From the NCBI GenBank assembly GCA_030603385.1, contig JAUVXW010000004.1, positions 1 through 64,000 of the forward strand: a stretch of DNA of 64,000 bases. Direction: 5' to 3'. Below, one piece after another: positions 4,866-50,067 of this stretch. The stretch's first letter is position 1. Each line of letters begins with the position of its first letter. Below the pieces are notes generated by a model. The model had not been told where the DNA came from, did no database searches, and saw only the letters and a program-made list of their open reading frames with translations. Source of the DNA: Promethearchaeota archaeon (lineage in GTDB: Archaea; Asgardarchaeota; Lokiarchaeia; Sigyniarchaeales; SOKP01). The translations under genes and the position numbers were made by a program.

Positions 4866-6062
4866 TTATTTTTGATAGTTATTCCACTTTTCTTCAAGGT
4901 TTGGGTCTTGAAGGGTCTCCATTATGTATTTCGCATAATCTTCACCAGTGGCACCTGTATCTCTTCCTGTAAGGACTAGCTTCTTCTCATAGGTGGCACA
5001 AATATCAAGAGCCATTTCAAGTTTTTTCGCTTTATCTACAAATCCTATGTGGTTTAAAAGTAATGCGGCAGCTTTTATGATACTCGATGGGTCAGCATAT
5101 TTTGCTCGTCCTTCTTCAACCATTCTAGGAGCTGAACCATGAATTGCTTCAAACATCGAATACTCTTTACCTATATTCGCACTCCCAGCTGTTCCTACTC
5201 CGCCTTGAAGTTGAGCAGCTTCGTCGGTTATGATGTCTCCATAAAGGTTAGGTGCGACAAAAACTTTAAAATCACTTTGACGAGCTGGATCAATTAGCTT
5301 CGCAGTTGCAATATCTATGTACCAATCGTCCCATTTGACTTGTGGATATTCTTTTGAAATTTCTTCTGCCATGGCAAGAAATCTACCATCAGTAGCTTTT
5401 ACTACATTTGCCTTTGTTACAACCGAAACACGATTGATATTGTTTTTTGCTGCGTAGTCAAAAGCTAAACGTATGATTCTATCTGAACCTTGTTTTGTTA
5501 TCACTTTAAAATCGATTGATAAATCATCAGATATATTAATTCCTTTTGAGCCTAAAACATAAGCACCCTCTGTATTTTCCCTAAAAAACATCCAATCTAT
5601 TCCTAATTCTGGAACTTTCACTGGTCGAACATTTGCAAATAGGTCTAACTCACGTCTCATCGTTACATTAGCGCTTTCGATATTTGGCCACTTATCTCCT
5701 TTCCTCGGCGTGGTCGTGGGCCCCTTGAGGAGGACATGACATTTTTTAATCTCTACTAGAACGTCATCAGGAATAGCCTTCATTACTTTTGCTCTATTCT
5801 CTATTGTTAATCCCTCAATGACTCTAAATTCTACATCCCCCCTACTCGCTTCATCCTTTAGTAAAAATTCTAATATTGCTTGTGCGTGTTTCGTAATGAA
5901 TGGACCAATTCCATCACCTCCAACTAGACCAATAATAATCGGTTTCAACTTGGAATAGTCTGTCCAATCAGCAGCTTTTTTCATGCGTTCAACTCTTTCG
6001 AGTTGTTCTTTAACAATTGTTTCAAAGTGTTTTTTTGCATTCTCAACAATTTCATTCATCAT
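4866..6062 (-). CDS. icd: Isocitrate/isopropylmalate dehydrogenase family enzyme, probably isocitrate dehydrogenase
   Basis: GDGIGP, KGPTTTP, SAN..MRRELDLFANVRP, RENTEG.Y, NLYGDI.TD, EAIHGSAP. Specificity is inferred from the TCA context. Confidence 0.75.
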   Translation of the reverse strand: MMNEIVENAKKHFETIVKEQLERVERMKKAADWTDYSKLKPIIIGLVGGDGIGPFITKHAQAILEFLLKDEASRGDVEFRVIEGLTIENRAKVMKAIPDDVLVEIKKCHVLLKGPTTTPRKGDKWPNIESANVTMRRELDLFANVRPVKVPELGIDWMFFRENTEGAYVLGSKGINISDDLSIDFKVITKQGSDRIIRLAFDYAAKNNINRVSVVTKANVVKATDGRFLAMAEEISKEYPQVKWDDWYIDIATAKLIDPARQSDFKVFVAPNLYGDIITDEAAQLQGGVGTAGSANIGKEYSMFEAIHGSAPRMVEEGRAKYADPSSIIKAAALLLNHIGFVDKAKKLEMALDICATYEKKLVLTGRDTGATGEDYAKYIMETLQDPNLEEKWNNYQK

Positions 6063-34501: not shown

Positions 34502-35265
34502 TGGTAGAAAAACATAAATTTTTAGTTTATAGAAATTCTGGTAATGGAAAAAGTCATTATGACAAATTCGAATTTCCAGTTTCAAAGGGTATGAGTATTT
34601 TAGATGCTCTTTTTTATATACAGGATTATTTTGATTCAACACTAGCTTTTCGTTATGCGTGTAGGGGAGCAATTTGTGGATCATGTGGAATGACTATAGA
34701 TAAAGTACCCTTGCTCGCGTGTAGAACTCAAGTATCTACCGTTAAAATTGCTAAGAAACCCATTAATTTGCCTGAGTTTAAATTTGGTGATCATCCAGAT
34801 TGGGATCCTGATACTGAAATTTTGGTTGAGCCATTACCGAATATGACAGTTTTAAAAGATTTGGTTGTAGATATGAAACCTTTCTGGAAATTTTATAGAG
34901 AGATTGAACCGTTTTTTGAAAGAGAGTTGAATGATATTGCTCCAGAATCAACACAATCACCATCTCAAATGAAAAAAATTGAACGTCTAGTCTATTGTAT
35001 ATTGTGTGGATTATGCTGGGCTTGCCCTGTTAGCAACAAAAATCCAAAATATTTAGGACCAGCACAATTAGCAAAAGCAGAGAGATTTATAAGTGATTCA
35101 AGAATATCAAATGAGAAACAGAGATCAATTCTTTCACGTGTTTTAAAGGATGATGCAGTTCCTGCATGTGAGAAATTTTTCGTCTGCAATCGGATCTGTC
35201 CTAAGGGAGTTATGCCAGGGACAGCAATTAAGGATATAAGAGATAAAAATATCAGTGAGAGATAA
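34501..35265 (+). CDS. sdhB: Succinate dehydrogenase/fumarate reductase Fe-S subunit
   Basis: CRGAICGSCG...LAC, PLP...V.KDLVVD, CILCGLC..CP, C.....C...CPKG. Confidence 0.93.
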   Translation: MVEKHKFLVYRNSGNGKSHYDKFEFPVSKGMSILDALFYIQDYFDSTLAFRYACRGAICGSCGMTIDKVPLLACRTQVSTVKIAKKPINLPEFKFGDHPDWDPDTEILVEPLPNMTVLKDLVVDMKPFWKFYREIEPFFERELNDIAPESTQSPSQMKKIERLVYCILCGLCWACPVSNKNPKYLGPAQLAKAERFISDSRISNEKQRSILSRVLKDDAVPACEKFFVCNRICPKGVMPGTAIKDIRDKNISER

Positions 35266-41275: not shown

Positions 41276-43066
41276 TTAATCAACTCTTTTTGTTGAAGCT
41301 GCCATTTTATTAGGATCTGACATCACTTCAACAATCGAGGGCTTTCCAGAACTTAAAGCTTGTTCTAAAGCATCATCCATTTTGTCTGGTGTTTCAACTC
41401 TAATTCCAAAGCCTCCACAAGATCGAGCAAACTCAGCAAAATTAGGATTAGGAAACTCGACTCCATAGATTGGATAACCATCACGTATTAATTCTTTTTT
41501 AATATTTTTTAAAACACAGTCATGGAATAAAACAACTACAATGTTCAAATTTTCTCGCACTACTGTTGTAAAATCAGCCATTAGCATAGCGAATCCTCCA
41601 TCGCTCGCAAGGCAAATAACTTGTCTTTCGGGATAATTTATTTTCGCTGCAATTGATGCAGGCAAAGCAAAACCCATACTTGCCATATTTGCATTTAGAT
41701 AAGTTCTATGTCCTTCGCAAATGAATTTCTTATAGAAATGATATGTATGATCACCCACATCCACACAGATTATGGCATCGTTTTCTAAAATTCTCCTCAT
41801 AGATTGAATAACATACCCTGGATTTATTGGAACCGATAAATCTTTTGCTTCTAATTCAAGTTCAGCCATATGTTTTTGTTTCATTTTAAAAACGTGTGAT
41901 AAAAAATTATTGTTTTCCTGTTTTACTTCTACTAAAGGTATTAATTTCTTAAGAGTGAGTTTACCATCACCTATTAATCCAACATCAACATCAAAGGTTT
42001 TACCTATTCGAGTTGGGTCATGATCTATTTGTAATATTTTTACGTTTGAAGGCACGAGATTTGCTTGTCTAAAGCCTGAGCCAATAATAATTATTAAATC
42101 ACATTCTCGAATAGCCATAGCTGAATATTTTGTCCCTATTGAGCCTAATACGCCCACAGCATATCTATGTGTTTCATGAACAACACCTTTAACTCGTGAG
42201 GTAGTGGCAATTGGGGCTTTCAATTTCTCTGAGAGTTCAATAAGTAGTTCTCCAGCATATCTCGATCCCCATCCCCCGAATAATACTGGTCTGGTGCATT
42301 TATTGATTAGATCTGCCGCTTTTTGTATTTCCTCATCAGTTGATATAACATTACTTTTAAACAATCGTTTTTCTGGTTGGATTATTTTATCATCTAATTT
42401 ATCAACAAGAACATCTGTCGGGCAACTTAAAACAGCTACTCCTGGTTTCTTGAGTGCATATTTTGCTGCCATCATTGTAAGCTTAATTGCCTGATTCGAT
42501 CTTGCAATAGTTTCAGCGTATTCTGCAAAGGGTCGAAATAATGTAATTTGGTCTATCTCTTGAAAAGCTTCACTACCTAAGTAAACTTCAGCAATTTGAC
42601 CTACAAGTGCTAAAACGGGGCTTCTATCAGTTGCAGAGTCCATTAATCCAGTAATTAAATTAGTGGCTCCAGGTCCAGCAATAGACATACAAACACCCAA
42701 CTTACCGGTAATCTTCCCGTGAGCAGAAGCAATGAAAGCAGCTGTTTCTTCATGTCTAGTTAAAATAAAATCAATTTTTTCGTTTTCACGAATTGCATTA
42801 ACTAAAGGAAGATTAGAATCTCCAGGAATTCCAAAAACATGCGTAACTCCAAAAGCAACTAATTGTTCAATAATTTTTTCTGCTACATTTGTAGTTATAT
42901 TTTCATCCCCTTTACTCACCCCCTCTGGAACAAAAGCACTTTTAGGTGCACCGCAAACAGGACATGTCCAAGAGTCAGATAAAACGGCAAATTTTTTACC
43001 CTCGTTTTTCTCATCATAAATAAAATTACAGACAGAACATCTAAATCTAGCCAAAATTTTCACCAA
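41276..43066 (-). CDS. Rubredoxin-fused TPP-dependent enzyme (pyruvate oxidase/acetolactate synthase family)
   Basis: N-terminal CSVC.FIYD...WTCPVCGAPK..F rubredoxin, then FGIPGD, RHEE.AAF, GPGATN, MGFALP, and SDGG in place of GDG. Confidence 0.88.
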   Translation of the reverse strand: MVKILARFRCSVCNFIYDEKNEGKKFAVLSDSWTCPVCGAPKSAFVPEGVSKGDENITTNVAEKIIEQLVAFGVTHVFGIPGDSNLPLVNAIRENEKIDFILTRHEETAAFIASAHGKITGKLGVCMSIAGPGATNLITGLMDSATDRSPVLALVGQIAEVYLGSEAFQEIDQITLFRPFAEYAETIARSNQAIKLTMMAAKYALKKPGVAVLSCPTDVLVDKLDDKIIQPEKRLFKSNVISTDEEIQKAADLINKCTRPVLFGGWGSRYAGELLIELSEKLKAPIATTSRVKGVVHETHRYAVGVLGSIGTKYSAMAIRECDLIIIIGSGFRQANLVPSNVKILQIDHDPTRIGKTFDVDVGLIGDGKLTLKKLIPLVEVKQENNNFLSHVFKMKQKHMAELELEAKDLSVPINPGYVIQSMRRILENDAIICVDVGDHTYHFYKKFICEGHRTYLNANMASMGFALPASIAAKINYPERQVICLASDGGFAMLMADFTTVVRENLNIVVVLFHDCVLKNIKKELIRDGYPIYGVEFPNPNFAEFARSCGGFGIRVETPDKMDDALEQALSSGKPSIVEVMSDPNKMAASTKRVD

Positions 43067-43200
43067 CTTATAAAGAATACAATATTGATTTAAAGTTATT
43101 TACGGAAATAATGAGAAATAAACTTTAGGCATATAAACTATAAGTTTTTATTAACACCAAAACTAATTCTTTTTAATTCTAATATTAAAATTGATACAAA

Positions 43201-44112
43201 ATGTCTGAAGAAATTATTAGGAAAAAATTTCCTCAATTTAAGAGCGAATTTGCTGAAGTTAACAACATTAAACTTCACTATGTTAAAGCAGGTCCGGAGG
43301 AAGGAAAACTAATTGTTTTTTTGCATGGATTTCCCCAGTTTTGGTATATGTGGAGAGATCAGCTTTTAGATTTTTCAAAAGATTACTTAGCAGTTGCTCC
43401 TGACATGAGGGGATATAATCTCTCATCTAAACCCGAGGAAATTGAACAATATCAACCTCAACATATGGTAGAAGATCTCAGGGCATTAGTCGAGGACCAT
43501 TTTAATCGTAAAGAATTTATATTAGTTGGACATGATTGGGGTGGTGTTGTTGCTTATCCATTTGCGAGTGCGTATCCAAATTTGGTTGAAAAACTAATTA
43601 TTATCAATGCTCCTCATCCAAATGTATTTGCGAAATTATTAGCAAAAAATAAATCTCAACAATCTTCAAGTTCATATGTATTATTTTTTAGATCACAAAA
43701 GGCTGAGGAAGTATTGTCTGCAAATAATTATGCTGCTTTGTTGGGCGTAATTGCTACTCCTGAAATGGAGTTTAGTGATGATGATCGCCAAATGTATATA
43801 GAAGCATGGTCTCAACAAGGTGCTTTAACTGGAGGACTGAATTATTATCGAGCTGGTGGATTACGTCCTCCATCACAAGGAGAAAAAATCTCAGAAGTAG
43901 CGGGTGAGCAGATGGAGATAAATCAAATAATGATAAATGTTCCGACATTAGTAATTTGGGCAGAGAAAGACACCGCTCTAACAGTTCATAATCTTGAAGG
44001 TTTGGATGAATTTGTACCTGAATTAGCTATTAATCGCATTCCAGAAGGATCTCATTGGGTTATTAATGAACAGCCTGAGAGGATAAATAAATTAATTAGG
44101 GATTTTATATAG
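43201..44112 (+). CDS. Alpha/beta hydrolase, epoxide hydrolase-like
   Basis: HGFPQFWY.W, PDMRGYN.S, GHDWGG, NYYRA, HWV..E.P. Confidence 0.92.
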   Translation: MSEEIIRKKFPQFKSEFAEVNNIKLHYVKAGPEEGKLIVFLHGFPQFWYMWRDQLLDFSKDYLAVAPDMRGYNLSSKPEEIEQYQPQHMVEDLRALVEDHFNRKEFILVGHDWGGVVAYPFASAYPNLVEKLIIINAPHPNVFAKLLAKNKSQQSSSSYVLFFRSQKAEEVLSANNYAALLGVIATPEMEFSDDDRQMYIEAWSQQGALTGGLNYYRAGGLRPPSQGEKISEVAGEQMEINQIMINVPTLVIWAEKDTALTVHNLEGLDEFVPELAINRIPEGSHWVINEQPERINKLIRDFI

Positions 44113-47372: not shown

Positions 47373-48032
47373 GTGAAAATGGAAAAAGGAGAAGTTATAG
47401 GGAAAGGAAGGACAGCAGAAGTAATATATTGGGGTAATAACAGAGTTTTAAAACTATTCTACAAAGATTTTCCAAGTAGTATAATAGATTATCAATATAA
47501 AGTAGATACCTTGATTGGGAAAATTTTTCCAAATTGTCCTAAAGCTTTAGAGAAAATTGAAGAAAACGGTAGAATTGGTATCCTTTACGAATATATCGAA
47601 GGAATAGTCTTAAGGGAATTCATGGGGAAAAAAATCAAAAGTGTAGGTAAAGCTCTTAGAATGTTAGCAGAAATCCACGTTGAGATGCATAAGTACGAAA
47701 TAAAGGATATCAACTCTCAAAAAAATTCTTTTAAACTATCAATTCAACAGACGGATGTTGCCAGAACTTTTTATGTATTAAAATACGGTTTGGCACCTTC
47801 TGATGAATATACTCTTAAGAAAAGTTTTTTACATAGATTTTTTTTCAAAGCAATTAAATCTCTTGTGGCAAAAACATATATCAAGCATTATCTAAAACTA
47901 ACTGGTAAATCCATGGAAGAGATTAAGAAATGGAATCTTGCTATATTTGCCACGCGCCTTCGTGATCCAGTGCCTTTAGAATATGATAATTTATTGAAAA
48001 TGATCAATAATTCACTTAAACATTATAAATAA
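47373..48032 (+). pseudogene. Aminoglycoside-phosphotransferase-like kinase with an in-frame deletion of the catalytic core (pseudogene or pseudokinase)
   Basis: The N-lobe (GKGRTAEV..., VLKLF, YEYIEG, LA..H..MH) joins directly to DVART. The HGD.H..N and D(W/F) motifs are missing. Confidence 0.7.
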
Positions 48033-48046
48033 ATTTTTAAAATTGT

Positions 48047-48055
48047 AAAAAAAAA
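48047..48055 (-). terminator. Oligo-T terminator candidate downstream of the SECIS
   Basis: T9 run on the minus strand right after the stem-loop. Archaeal intrinsic terminators are oligo-T. Confidence 0.45.
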
Positions 48056-48066
48056 GACGAGTAATT

Positions 48067-48135
48067 TCCCAGAACCCTTGCAAGGTTGTCATCATGTGCC
48101 AATCATTTATGCACATAAATCATTCTTATCTGGGA
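48067..48135 (-). promoter_or_regulatory. Eukaryote-like SECIS element in the 3' UTR
   Basis: Minus strand: UCCCAGA-UAAGA-AUGAU-UUAUGUGC-AUAAAUGAUUG-GCACAUGA-UGAC-AACCUUGCAAGGGU-UCUGGGA. This gives helix I, an AUGAN/NGAN kink-turn core, helix II and apical AAA. It starts 6 nt after the stop codon. Confidence 0.85.
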
Positions 48136-48141
48136 TATTGA

Positions 48142-48657
48142 TTATAAATGTTTTTCGATTGCTTCAACAATTAATTCTATTGATGGTCTATCTGTTTTTG
48201 CCCCAATATATTGCCACACTATGTTTCCTTCTTTATTAATAAGAAATTTTGATGGTATAGCATGACTTATTTGTAATCCATCGTGTACCGCAGACTTTCT
48301 ATCTAAGAAAACATTATAGGCCTTACTAATTCTACCAGCTCGATCAGTAATAAACTGTATTTTATAGTTATTTTTGTACTTCATTTTTATTAGTTTATCA
48401 GGAAGATCTATTGCGATAGATATTAGTTTGACATTATTTTTTTTTAATATTGACAAGTTTTCATTTAGGTAATTGAGATGTTTTTTACAATGAATTCACC
48501 AACTTCCACGAAATAAATCAAGTAAAATACCTTTATACTTTTTTAGCAATTCAGTTAAATTTATGGTATCACCATCTATATCTTCTGTGTCAATCATAGG
48601 TGCTTTAGTTCCTAATGGTAAACCTTTATTTGGTGTTGAAATATGCAATTCTGTCAT
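48142..48657 (-). CDS. Selenocysteine-containing peroxiredoxin-like (AhpC/TSA, redoxin) protein, UxxC active site
   Basis: The two listed ORFs are in one frame separated by TGA at 48496-48498: FRGSW-U-IHC, the position of the first Cys of the thioredoxin-fold CxxC. Downstream motifs IAID, D....I..AY.V, PSKFLIN..G.I.W.Y, RP are intact. Confidence 0.9.
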
Positions 48658-48789
48658 AATTGAAATAATTATTTTTTCAATACTTAAAGGGTTTTTCAAT
48701 AAATTATAAACGTTTGAGATTAATGTTTTAAAAGCCTAATAATTAAATACCTACTTAATTTACTTAAAGGTAAATTTAAGATTTCAAAA

Positions 48790-50067
48790 ATGAGGGAATA
48801 TTATATGAATCGCGAATTAAAAAGTTGTGAGACAACAGATTCATTTGCGTGTGAAGATTACAAAGAAAAAGAACCTAAGATGTGTGAACTTGACCAATCT
48901 AAGACTTATAAAGGATTAGTTGGAATTTATGTAGATGAAAGTACTATAACCTATATTGATGGACTTAAAGGAGAATTATACTATCGAGGTTATCCTTTAC
49001 ATGATTTAGTTGATAATTCTTCATTTGAAGAAGTTGCATATCTGTTAATATATGGAAAGTTACCTTCGAAATCAGAATTTGAAGCTTTTAATGATGAATT
49101 AATTAAGGAACGAAATATACATGATAATATTTTAACAATTTTAAAAAGCTATCCAAGAAATACTACTAGAATAGAGTTATTAAGAACTTCAGTTTCCGCA
49201 TTATCTCTTTATGACCCAGATGATTATGACTTTTCAGAAGAAGCAAATATTAGGAAAGGTATAAGAATAATCGCGAAAATTCCAACAGTTTTAGCTTTTT
49301 CTCACAGAATTCAGAGTAATCTGCCTTTAATAGAACCTTCAGAAGACCTCTCTCATGCATGTAATTATTATTATATGATGACAGGAGAGGTTCCCAATAA
49401 TGAATTTACTCGTTATTTTGATAAAATATTAATTTGTCACATGGATCACTCGATCAACAGTAGCACTTTCTCCTGTAGGGTTACTGTCTCAACTTTGTCA
49501 GATATGTATAGCGGTATAACAAGTGCCATTGGAACACTTCGAGGGCCTCTTCATGGGGGTGCCAACGAAAGAGTAATAAACTCAATGTTGGGAGAAGTAA
49601 AGAAAATAGAAAATGTTACCCCTTGGGCAAAATCTAAGTTGGAAAACAAAGAAAAGATAATGGGTTTTGGGCACCGAGTTTATAAGACATGGGATCCCCG
49701 AGCTAAAATCTTGCGTGATATAGCTAGGGAATTATGGAATAATCCTGAAATCGTGGAGAAGATTCCAGATTTACAACATGAAGAACATAAAGGTGATATA
49801 GATAATATTTTTGAAATGACAGAAATACTTACAGATTTTATGATCAAAACCAAAAATATTTATCCAAACGTCGATCTATATTCTGCTGGTGCCTTACATG
49901 CATTAGGAATACCTACAGCATTATTTACACCTTTGTTCGCTGCTTCTAGAAGTGCTGGGTGGGTAGCTCATGCCATAGAGCAACTTTCCGACAATAAACT
50001 GATCAGACCACGACTTCGATATGTGGGCGACCTAGATAAGAATTATATTGGTATTGAGAAGAGATAA
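48790..50067 (+). CDS. gltA: Citrate synthase (Si type)
   Basis: GL.G....S.I..IDG..GEL.YRGY, H.DH..N.STF, GPLHGGANE, MGFGHRVYK..DPRA, YPNVD.YS, R..GW.AH, RPR. Confidence 0.93.
   Translation: MREYYMNRELKSCETTDSFACEDYKEKEPKMCELDQSKTYKGLVGIYVDESTITYIDGLKGELYYRGYPLHDLVDNSSFEEVAYLLIYGKLPSKSEFEAFNDELIKERNIHDNILTILKSYPRNTTRIELLRTSVSALSLYDPDDYDFSEEANIRKGIRIIAKIPTVLAFSHRIQSNLPLIEPSEDLSHACNYYYMMTGEVPNNEFTRYFDKILICHMDHSINSSTFSCRVTVSTLSDMYSGITSAIGTLRGPLHGGANERVINSMLGEVKKIENVTPWAKSKLENKEKIMGFGHRVYKTWDPRAKILRDIARELWNNPEIVEKIPDLQHEEHKGDIDNIFEMTEILTDFMIKTKNIYPNVDLYSAGALHALGIPTALFTPLFAASRSAGWVAHAIEQLSDNKLIRPRLRYVGDLDKNYIGIEKR

Follow-up and report, generated by a model that had tools for sequence, protein, structure and literature searches.

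The minus strand of the 64,000-nt stretch analyzed here (the window; contig JAUVXW010000004.1 of assembly GCA_030603385.1, from a Promethearchaeota archaeon of the class Lokiarchaeia) carries one gene for a selenocysteine (Sec)-containing peroxiredoxin-like (PrxL) protein, with a selenocysteine insertion sequence (SECIS) element of the lokiSECIS type in its 3′ untranslated region (3′UTR), a reading to which we assign a probability of about 0.93. Under translation table 11 the locus falls into two short minus-strand open reading frames (ORFs), 48699..48496 (67 aa, ended by TGA) and 48456..48142 (104 aa). When the TGA is read through, a single frame of 171 codons extends from the ATG at 48657 to the TAA at 48144-48142, and its sole TGA is codon 54 (48498-48496) in the motif F-R-G-S-W-U-I-H-C. 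An earlier reading of the window from its letters alone (the sequence-only reading) had proposed this arrangement, namely one frame broken by a single TGA at the redox-Cys position, cut in two by standard annotation and encoding one 171-aa Sec enzyme. Each part of the proposal agrees with the data below: the first Cys of ResA aligns at the TGA, and TGA conservation, substitution rates, the SECIS model and the Sec machinery support a single enzyme. In public protein catalogs the homologues appear in two forms: C-terminal fragments of 104-117 aa, and full-length proteins that carry W at the Sec site, with two W in some.

We searched related genomes for homologues and found them in 33 of 61, where all 48 homologous places hold one or two in-frame TGA codons and every redox motif extracted reads F-R-G-x-W-U-x-x-C/U. 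Three PrxL subfamilies could be recognized, all with U at the site: FRGSWUIHC, which includes the studied gene and occurs in 6 genomes of the genus searched; FRGNWUSHC, in about 25 genomes; and FRGTWU[ST]YU, which has two Sec. No close homologue bearing Cys was present among 24 aligned database homologues, and all those covering the site have W there, i.e., TGA. The TGA is invariant in seven orthologues, the studied gene and six from other assemblies. Orthologous contigs come from Promethearchaeia/Promethearchaeota archaeon ABR03, Loki_b32, Hel_238_bin13 and YT5_013; the PrxL stretch is also present in marine-sediment, cold-seep and subsurface metagenomes. Synonymous divergence (dS) from the six orthologues ranges from about 0.2 to 2.1 and is near or above 1 in five of the six comparisons, while the ratio of nonsynonymous to synonymous divergence (dN/dS) lies between 0.10 and 0.14 before the TGA and between 0.03 and 0.09 after it. 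These low values on either side indicate that both halves of the frame are under protein-level selection.

The translated protein forms one domain across the TGA. Pfam assigned a single AhpC-TSA (1e-19) or Redoxin (4.5e-13) domain to residues 16-148, and the top NCBIfam matches were a ResA-type thiol-disulfide oxidoreductase and a thiol peroxidase, all under their cut-offs. The best sequence matches among solved structures were ResA (E 6e-13) and the BCP of A. pernix (E 7e-11). In the comparison with ResA, W-U-I-H-C aligns with W-C-x-x-C, which places U54 at the first, nucleophilic Cys of the CxxC box. An AlphaFold model built with 25 homologues reached a mean predicted local distance difference test score (pLDDT) of 88.5 and a predicted template modeling (TM) score (pTM) of 0.86, with U54 immediately before helix 55-66, and the nearest folds by Foldseek were archaeal BCP/PrxQ and AhpE peroxiredoxins (TM about 0.8; Sulfolobus Bcp4, 0.81). 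C57 is the sole Cys of the translation besides U54, a trait of the PrxL proteins described previously (PMC4989117). The protein is probably cytoplasmic, since no hydrophobic N-terminal stretch is visible in it.

A covariance model (R1) was trained on 20 elements that lie behind genes of the other two PrxL subfamilies in other species, with the studied gene and its orthologues excluded. R1 gave one significant match in the window, with 71.5 bits and E 1.9e-16 for minus-strand positions 48049-48140; the runner-up scored 13.6 bits. In the host genome at large, a simple pattern scan (ATGA-9-11-9-GA/AA) picked out, besides many other places, elements with this geometry downstream of further TGA-containing genes: a PrxL paralogue, three VhuD genes, one HdrA gene, two genes for U-U-pair proteins and a small membrane ORF. 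R1 recovered these elements as well. One further pattern match in the window, at 34873-34907 (+), is probably due to chance, being without R1 support and without a plausible TGA-containing ORF before it.

The minimum-energy fold of the 3′UTR element is a three-way junction. Its AUGA (48123-48120) begins 373 nt downstream of the UGA and 18 nt past the TAA. Helix II is formed by UUUAUGUGC and GCACAUGAU (48119-48111 and 48099-48091), with eight standard pairs and a U.U beside the core, and the first position of this helix is unpaired in 12 of the 20 paralogue elements as well. The 11-nt apical loop AUAAAUGAUUG (48110-48100) has A at four of its first five bases and G as its last; its penultimate base is U in the studied element and A in two orthologues. 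The GAAUGA half of the core and the pair G48125-C48088 are both invariant in 20 of 20 paralogue elements and in all eight distinct orthologue elements. The sequence-only reading had described a hairpin six nucleotides past the TAA with helix I UCCCAGA/UCUGGGA, a tandem G.A core and a U9 tract, all of which match the sequence. Its 8-bp helix II is accurate for the standard pairs, with the stem counting nine positions; the helices and core were given correctly and the extra hairpin that makes the element a three-way junction (hairpin 3) was omitted. Its label of a eukaryote-type SECIS holds for the AUGA...GA core and the 3′UTR location, and has to be narrowed to the lokiSECIS variant.

Covariation supports the helices in two separate sets of sequences. 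In the paralogue set, 12 of 23 pairs are changed on both sides, a level reached in none of 500 shuffles; compensatory changes occur in eight of the nine pairs of helix II, and sliding the partners by one to three columns lowers pairing from 89% to 30-51%. In the orthologue set of eight distinct sequences, 90% of cells pair and six both-sided pair changes are spread over all three helices (0/500 shuffles reach the observed covariation); those of helix I are U-A to G-C and G-C to U-A. The RNAalifold consensus independently gives the same three helices. A T-rich run lies downstream of the SECIS element in all orthologues and paralogues. In the orthologue from isolate YT5_013 (G013:C13:69379-69890) the frame shifts at about residue 140 and hairpin 3 is less well paired; either the gene is decaying or the assembly is wrong there.

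Most of the Sec machinery is present in the host genome, a metagenome-assembled genome (MAG) of 58 contigs that is 94% complete. tRNA-Sec, SepSecS, PSTK and a SelB-type factor were identified, and the frames of the three protein genes are open and intact. ARAGORN found no tRNA in the 64-kb window, tRNA-Sec being on another contig. The observations that the sequence-only reading had set beforehand as able to overturn it (the residue of homologues at the TGA, the genome's Sec machinery and a sequencing error) were all checked, as was the 3′UTR element with a covariance model, and each favored Sec. As a separate observation, tRNA-Sec and the genes for SepSecS and the SelB-type factor are clustered (G000:C41:42328-49673).

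Several points weigh against this interpretation. A scan of 47900-48800 against Rfam at E ≤ 10 returned four chance matches (≤ 16.5 bits) and no SECIS family. The single-sequence fold energy of the element is ordinary (z = -1.13), and the case for a SECIS therefore rests on conservation, covariation and the model search. The PSTK and SelB matches lie under the NCBIfam curated cut-offs, and SelD was not found in the 58 contigs with either the family model or the SelD of a congener as query. A candidate on contig C34, the best match to TIGR00476 (87 bits), was rejected as AIR-synthase-like and lacking the N-terminal Sec/Cys motif. Lastly, the insertion of Sec at UGA-54 is itself something we infer.

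Four other explanations were weighed against a selenoprotein gene. UGA-54 might be read as Trp, Cys or another standard residue through a code change or near-cognate suppression, and the full-length W forms in public metagenome calls, together with the missing SelD, could be taken in this sense. These W calls, however, are the product of a gene caller using a TGA=Trp table, and in the host genome TGA is a normal stop that ends 207 of the 1530 ORFs of at least 300 codons. The codon also stands where a CxxC fold has its nucleophilic Cys, a place at which Trp would give no activity, and a dedicated tRNA-Sec, SepSecS, PSTK and SelB-type factor accompany a SECIS downstream of the gene, so that we hold this explanation to be very unlikely. 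A second view, that the strain has lost the Sec pathway and that the gene is a relic with a truncated product, also draws on the undetectable SelD. It is opposed by the intact frames of the other Sec genes, by the persistence in the genome of nine or more genes that contain a TGA and have an intact SECIS element, and by the occurrence of selD in 29 of 30 congeners set against an assembly that is 94% complete. The congener selD genes have an in-frame TGA and mostly come as two adjacent Sec-containing copies; multiple selD genes have been reported in Loki- and Thorarchaeia (PMC11227280). The absence of SelD from the MAG is probably an assembly gap and not a loss, and a relic gene appears highly improbable.

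The TGA could also be due to a nonsense mutation or to a mistake in assembly or sequencing, the gene then being a pseudogene or the codon really TGT or TGC. A single assembly cannot rule out such an error, and the YT5_013 orthologue is frameshifted near its 3′ end, but the same codon is TGA in all 48 homologous places and all seven orthologues, dN/dS downstream stays at or below 0.14 with synonymous divergence saturated, and a conserved SECIS follows the gene. In addition, contigs of four independent metagenome runs that cover codon 48496-48498 have no variant there among the differences listed (57 further differences lie beyond those listed), and we give an erroneous TGA almost no weight. A split into two small genes, the first of 53 or 67 aa and the second of 104 aa, followed by an unrelated hairpin and terminator, as the table 11 ORF calls and the database entries for 104-117-aa fragments would have it, is extremely unlikely given one Pfam domain and one compact predicted fold across the TGA, a 104-aa fragment without the active site and the first beta-alpha unit, and a downstream RNA specifically common to other TGA-containing genes.

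For the Sec-containing PrxL protein we propose the following mechanism. The product would be a 171-residue cytoplasmic thioredoxin-fold (Prx/BCP-like) oxidoreductase with U54 of U-I-H-C57 as its nucleophile. UGA-54 would be recoded by Sec-tRNA(Sec), delivered by an archaeal SelB/EFSec-type factor and directed from 373 nt downstream by the 3′UTR lokiSECIS, with its putative GA/GA kink-turn core, nine-position helix II and 11-nt loop inside a three-way junction, and the transcript would end at the U9 run. During the redox cycle a U54-C57 selenenylsulfide would be reduced by a thiol donor. The kink-turn geometry, a SECIS-binding factor, the substrate and the redox chemistry are presumed in this scheme.

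The three-way junction extends beyond the published core. The nine host-genome elements of the pattern scan and 20 of 20 paralogue elements have in common helix I, a short 5′ internal loop ending in G-AAU-GA, a 3′ GA (or AA) followed by C, and then a hairpin of 4-7 bp that abuts the 3′ strand of helix I. A GAC/AAC trinucleotide has been noted for the archaeal VhuD SECIS (PMC4989117). The sequences of helix I and hairpin 3 are wholly different from one gene family to another (VhuD, HdrA and further genes with an in-frame TGA), and their pairing is kept. With helix II constrained, the three-way-junction topology was obtained in eight of nine minimum-energy folds, with z from -0.7 to -3.7 versus shuffled flanks. 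These energy z-scores and the recurring topology are the evidence used; a shuffle count of equal junctions was discarded, its criterion being loose and uninformative. The invariant G (three bases before GA) and C (after the 3′ GA) would occupy the -1b and -1n positions of a kink-turn.

The position of the junction relative to the stop codon differs between subfamilies. In FRGNWUSHC and FRGTWU[ST]YU the codons for the C-terminal residues (...N-P-K/N) form the 5′ strand of helix I, so that coding sequence and recoding signal overlap, and the stop UAA lies within UAAGAAUGA. A stop UAA inside the SECIS internal loop is found in the PrxL paralogues of congeners and at G000:C4:199726-200355 in the host genome. 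In FRGSWUIHC, UAAGAAUGA is kept and the stop lies 12 nt further upstream, and the whole junction is therefore untranslated.

No description of a three-way-junction SECIS was found in the main text of PMC4989117 or PMC11227280, nor through a full-text search for SECIS with "three-way junction". This context may be the residual novelty of the present work, as a general property of the host genome and not one special to the studied gene. We suggest tentatively, as the less likely case, that the functional SECIS of the genus exceeds the published core, stem and loop and includes a k-junction-like junction in which the canonical helix is cut to one invariant G-C pair flanked by helix I and the 3′ hairpin. 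Should recoding depend on these extra arms, they could serve to dock an archaeal SECIS-binding factor. For the study of archaeal SECIS recognition the junction supplies concrete mutants in hairpin 3, helix I and the G-C pair.

Other loci of the host genome share parts of this system. A weaker tenth candidate, at G000:C53:12133-12227 (+) (= L062:1501-1595), is a SECIS-like three-way junction of 34.9 bits with a longer apical region and with U and A, not G and C, at the pair below the core. It starts 2 nt past a TGA that ends or interrupts an ORF of about 300 aa of unknown family (...AEDCE-TGA); this TGA is either a plain stop, the element serving another gene, or a Sec codon unusually near its SECIS. 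Two paralogous ORFs of about 120-160 aa with adjacent TGA-TGA codons (..GCUUEK.. and ..HADUUAD..) are located at G000:C10:102034-102543 (+) and G000:C34:53489-54001 (-), each with a lokiSECIS-type element downstream and without a Pfam family. A further ORF, at G000:C20:5677-5910 (+), encodes 76 aa with a single predicted membrane helix, contains an in-frame TGA (..GGSSUACV..) and is again without a Pfam family; its SECIS lies downstream at 5913-6004 (39 bits with R1).

Within the window, whose G+C content is about 32%, the PrxL gene stands alone on the minus strand, with a convergent 219-aa ORF without a Pfam family on one side and a divergent citrate synthase gene on the other. A scan for bacterial-type promoters and terminators, which is not applicable to an archaeon, returned no site resembling a terminator, and sites resembling promoters were no commoner than background. 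The coordinates of the features are collected in Table 1.

Table 1 Features of the PrxL locus in the window and Sec machinery elsewhere in the host genome (C1 and C41, contigs)
Feature	Position	Strand	Basis
PrxL (Prx-like, U-x-x-C) selenoprotein gene, 171 codons + TAA	48142..48657	-	Frame, Pfam, structure model, dN/dS
UGA codon 54, predicted to be read as selenocysteine, first position of U-x-x-C	48496..48498	-	Homologue conservation, ResA alignment
TTTATAA, possible TATA box, 47 nt 5′ of ATG	48704..48710	-	Inferred from the sequence alone
Complete SECIS, three-way junction; 5′ end 6 nt past the stop codon	48067..48135	-	Model R1, covariation, RNAalifold
Helix I 5′ strand, UCCCAGA, pairs with 48067-48073	48129..48135	-	Fold; two orthologue pairs changed on both sides
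G(-1b) + AAU loop + GA, putative kink-turn core 5′ half (GAAUGA, contains AUGA)	48120..48125	-	Conservation
Helix II, 9 positions per side, with 11-nt apical loop	48091..48119	-	Pattern scan, covariation
GA (48090-48089), tandem G.A core 3′ half, + C(-1n) 48088 pairing with G48125	48088..48090	-	Conservation
Hairpin 3, AACCUU-GCA-AGGGUU, between core and helix I 3′ strand	48073..48087	-	Fold, RNAalifold
Helix I 3′ strand, UCUGGGA	48067..48073	-	Fold, covariation, RNAalifold
U9 tract, probably an archaeal transcription termination signal	48047..48055	-	Tract read from the letters; T-rich run in all orthologues and paralogues
tRNA-Sec	C41:48216-48304		63 bits, above cut-off; ARAGORN anticodon tca
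SepSecS	C41:48372-49673, starts 68 nt downstream of tRNA-Sec		486 bits, above cut-off
SelB-type factor	C41, match 42328-43230, about 5 kb from tRNA-Sec		234.5 bits, cut-off 242; selB best family
PSTK	C1		148 bits, full length, under cut-off
SelD	Not found		Family model and congener's protein reach only AIR-synthase-like paralogues

The family, the orthologue group and the SECIS type have been published, and the studied gene is a rediscovery. PrxL.1 (two Sec) and PrxL.2 (one Sec) of Lokiarchaeota, and with them the lokiSECIS, are known from Mariotti et al. 2016 (PMC4989117). According to Huang, Xiao & Zhang 2024 (PMC11227280), 43% of the Asgard genomes that use Sec have Prx-like selenoproteins, for the most part accompanied by type I eukaryotic-SECIS-like (eSECIS-like) elements. 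Supplement file 79 of that paper lists as Prx-like selenoproteins seven sequences with G-S-W-X-I-H-C and one with G-S-W-X-I-L-C. The orthologues among them have the F-R-G-S-W-X-I-H-C motif and C-terminal halves close to identical with that of the studied protein; the one from assembly GCA_000986845 is, by reading, nearly identical to it over the C-terminal 100 residues. On these grounds the studied gene is orthologous to selenoproteins already published. Like the published PrxL proteins, the studied one has the thioredoxin/Prx fold, a Sec-first U-x-x-C redox box, no other Cys and a lokiSECIS near the stop; we see no essential difference, the studied gene being an orthologue in another MAG. As a single instance its importance lies chiefly in annotation: the family is systematically mis-called in protein catalogs, as a "redoxin" fragment or a Trp form, and the correct annotation is a Sec-containing PrxL protein.

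The element shares with the lokiSECIS (the Asgard type I eSECIS-like element) the flanking AUGA and GA, the nine-position stem, the 11-nt loop with its A-rich start and final G, and the location just past the coding sequence, and it is recognized by R1; the penultimate loop base is U where A is usual. The published descriptions model the core, upper stem and loop, whereas helix I, the fixed G-C pair and the 3′ hairpin are also conserved here. Standard SECIS tools are reported to fail on Lokiarchaeota (PMC4989117).

In comparison with the eukaryotic SECIS (Rfam RF00031, SECIS_1; a kink-turn bound by SBP2), the studied element has the same 3′UTR location and AUGA...GA tandem G.A core, would likewise act at a distance, leaves A's unpaired in its apical loop and has the same layout of helix I, internal loop and helix II; it differs in having an extra hairpin on the 3′ side of the internal loop and in not matching Rfam at E ≤ 10. 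Judged from these features it appears to work like a eukaryotic SECIS, but by the Rfam model it is not a member. No SBP2 homologue is known in Lokiarchaeota (PMC4989117). The euryarchaeal SECIS of Methanococcus and Methanopyrus shares the 3′UTR position and the PSTK and SepSecS route to Sec; its defining trait is a GAA/A bulge between GC-rich stems (PMC4989117). As the sequence-only reading had held in setting the element apart from the methanococcal one, stems of this type were not seen in 48040-48141, judged by inspection of the sequence and fold with no dedicated program.

A kink-turn elaborated into a three-way junction is known as a k-junction and was defined on thiamine pyrophosphate (TPP) riboswitches (Wang et al. 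2014; PMC4005666). The studied element has the same tandem G.A pairs, a 3-nt loop (AAU), G-C at -1b/-1n and a three-way branch that replaces the continuous C helix; the likeness is in secondary structure, and TPP riboswitches are not recoding signals. On the protein side, ResA/TlpA and BCP/PrxQ are the nearest relatives, the best matches being ResA and BCP in sequence and Bcp4, AhpE and PrxQ in fold. Their redox boxes differ, with C-x-x-C in ResA, T/S-x-x-C in Prx, where the peroxidatic Cys is second, and U-x-x-C in the studied protein. The PrxL gene adds one more well-supported example of the use, in Lokiarchaeia, of a eukaryote-like kink-turn SECIS acting from the 3′UTR.

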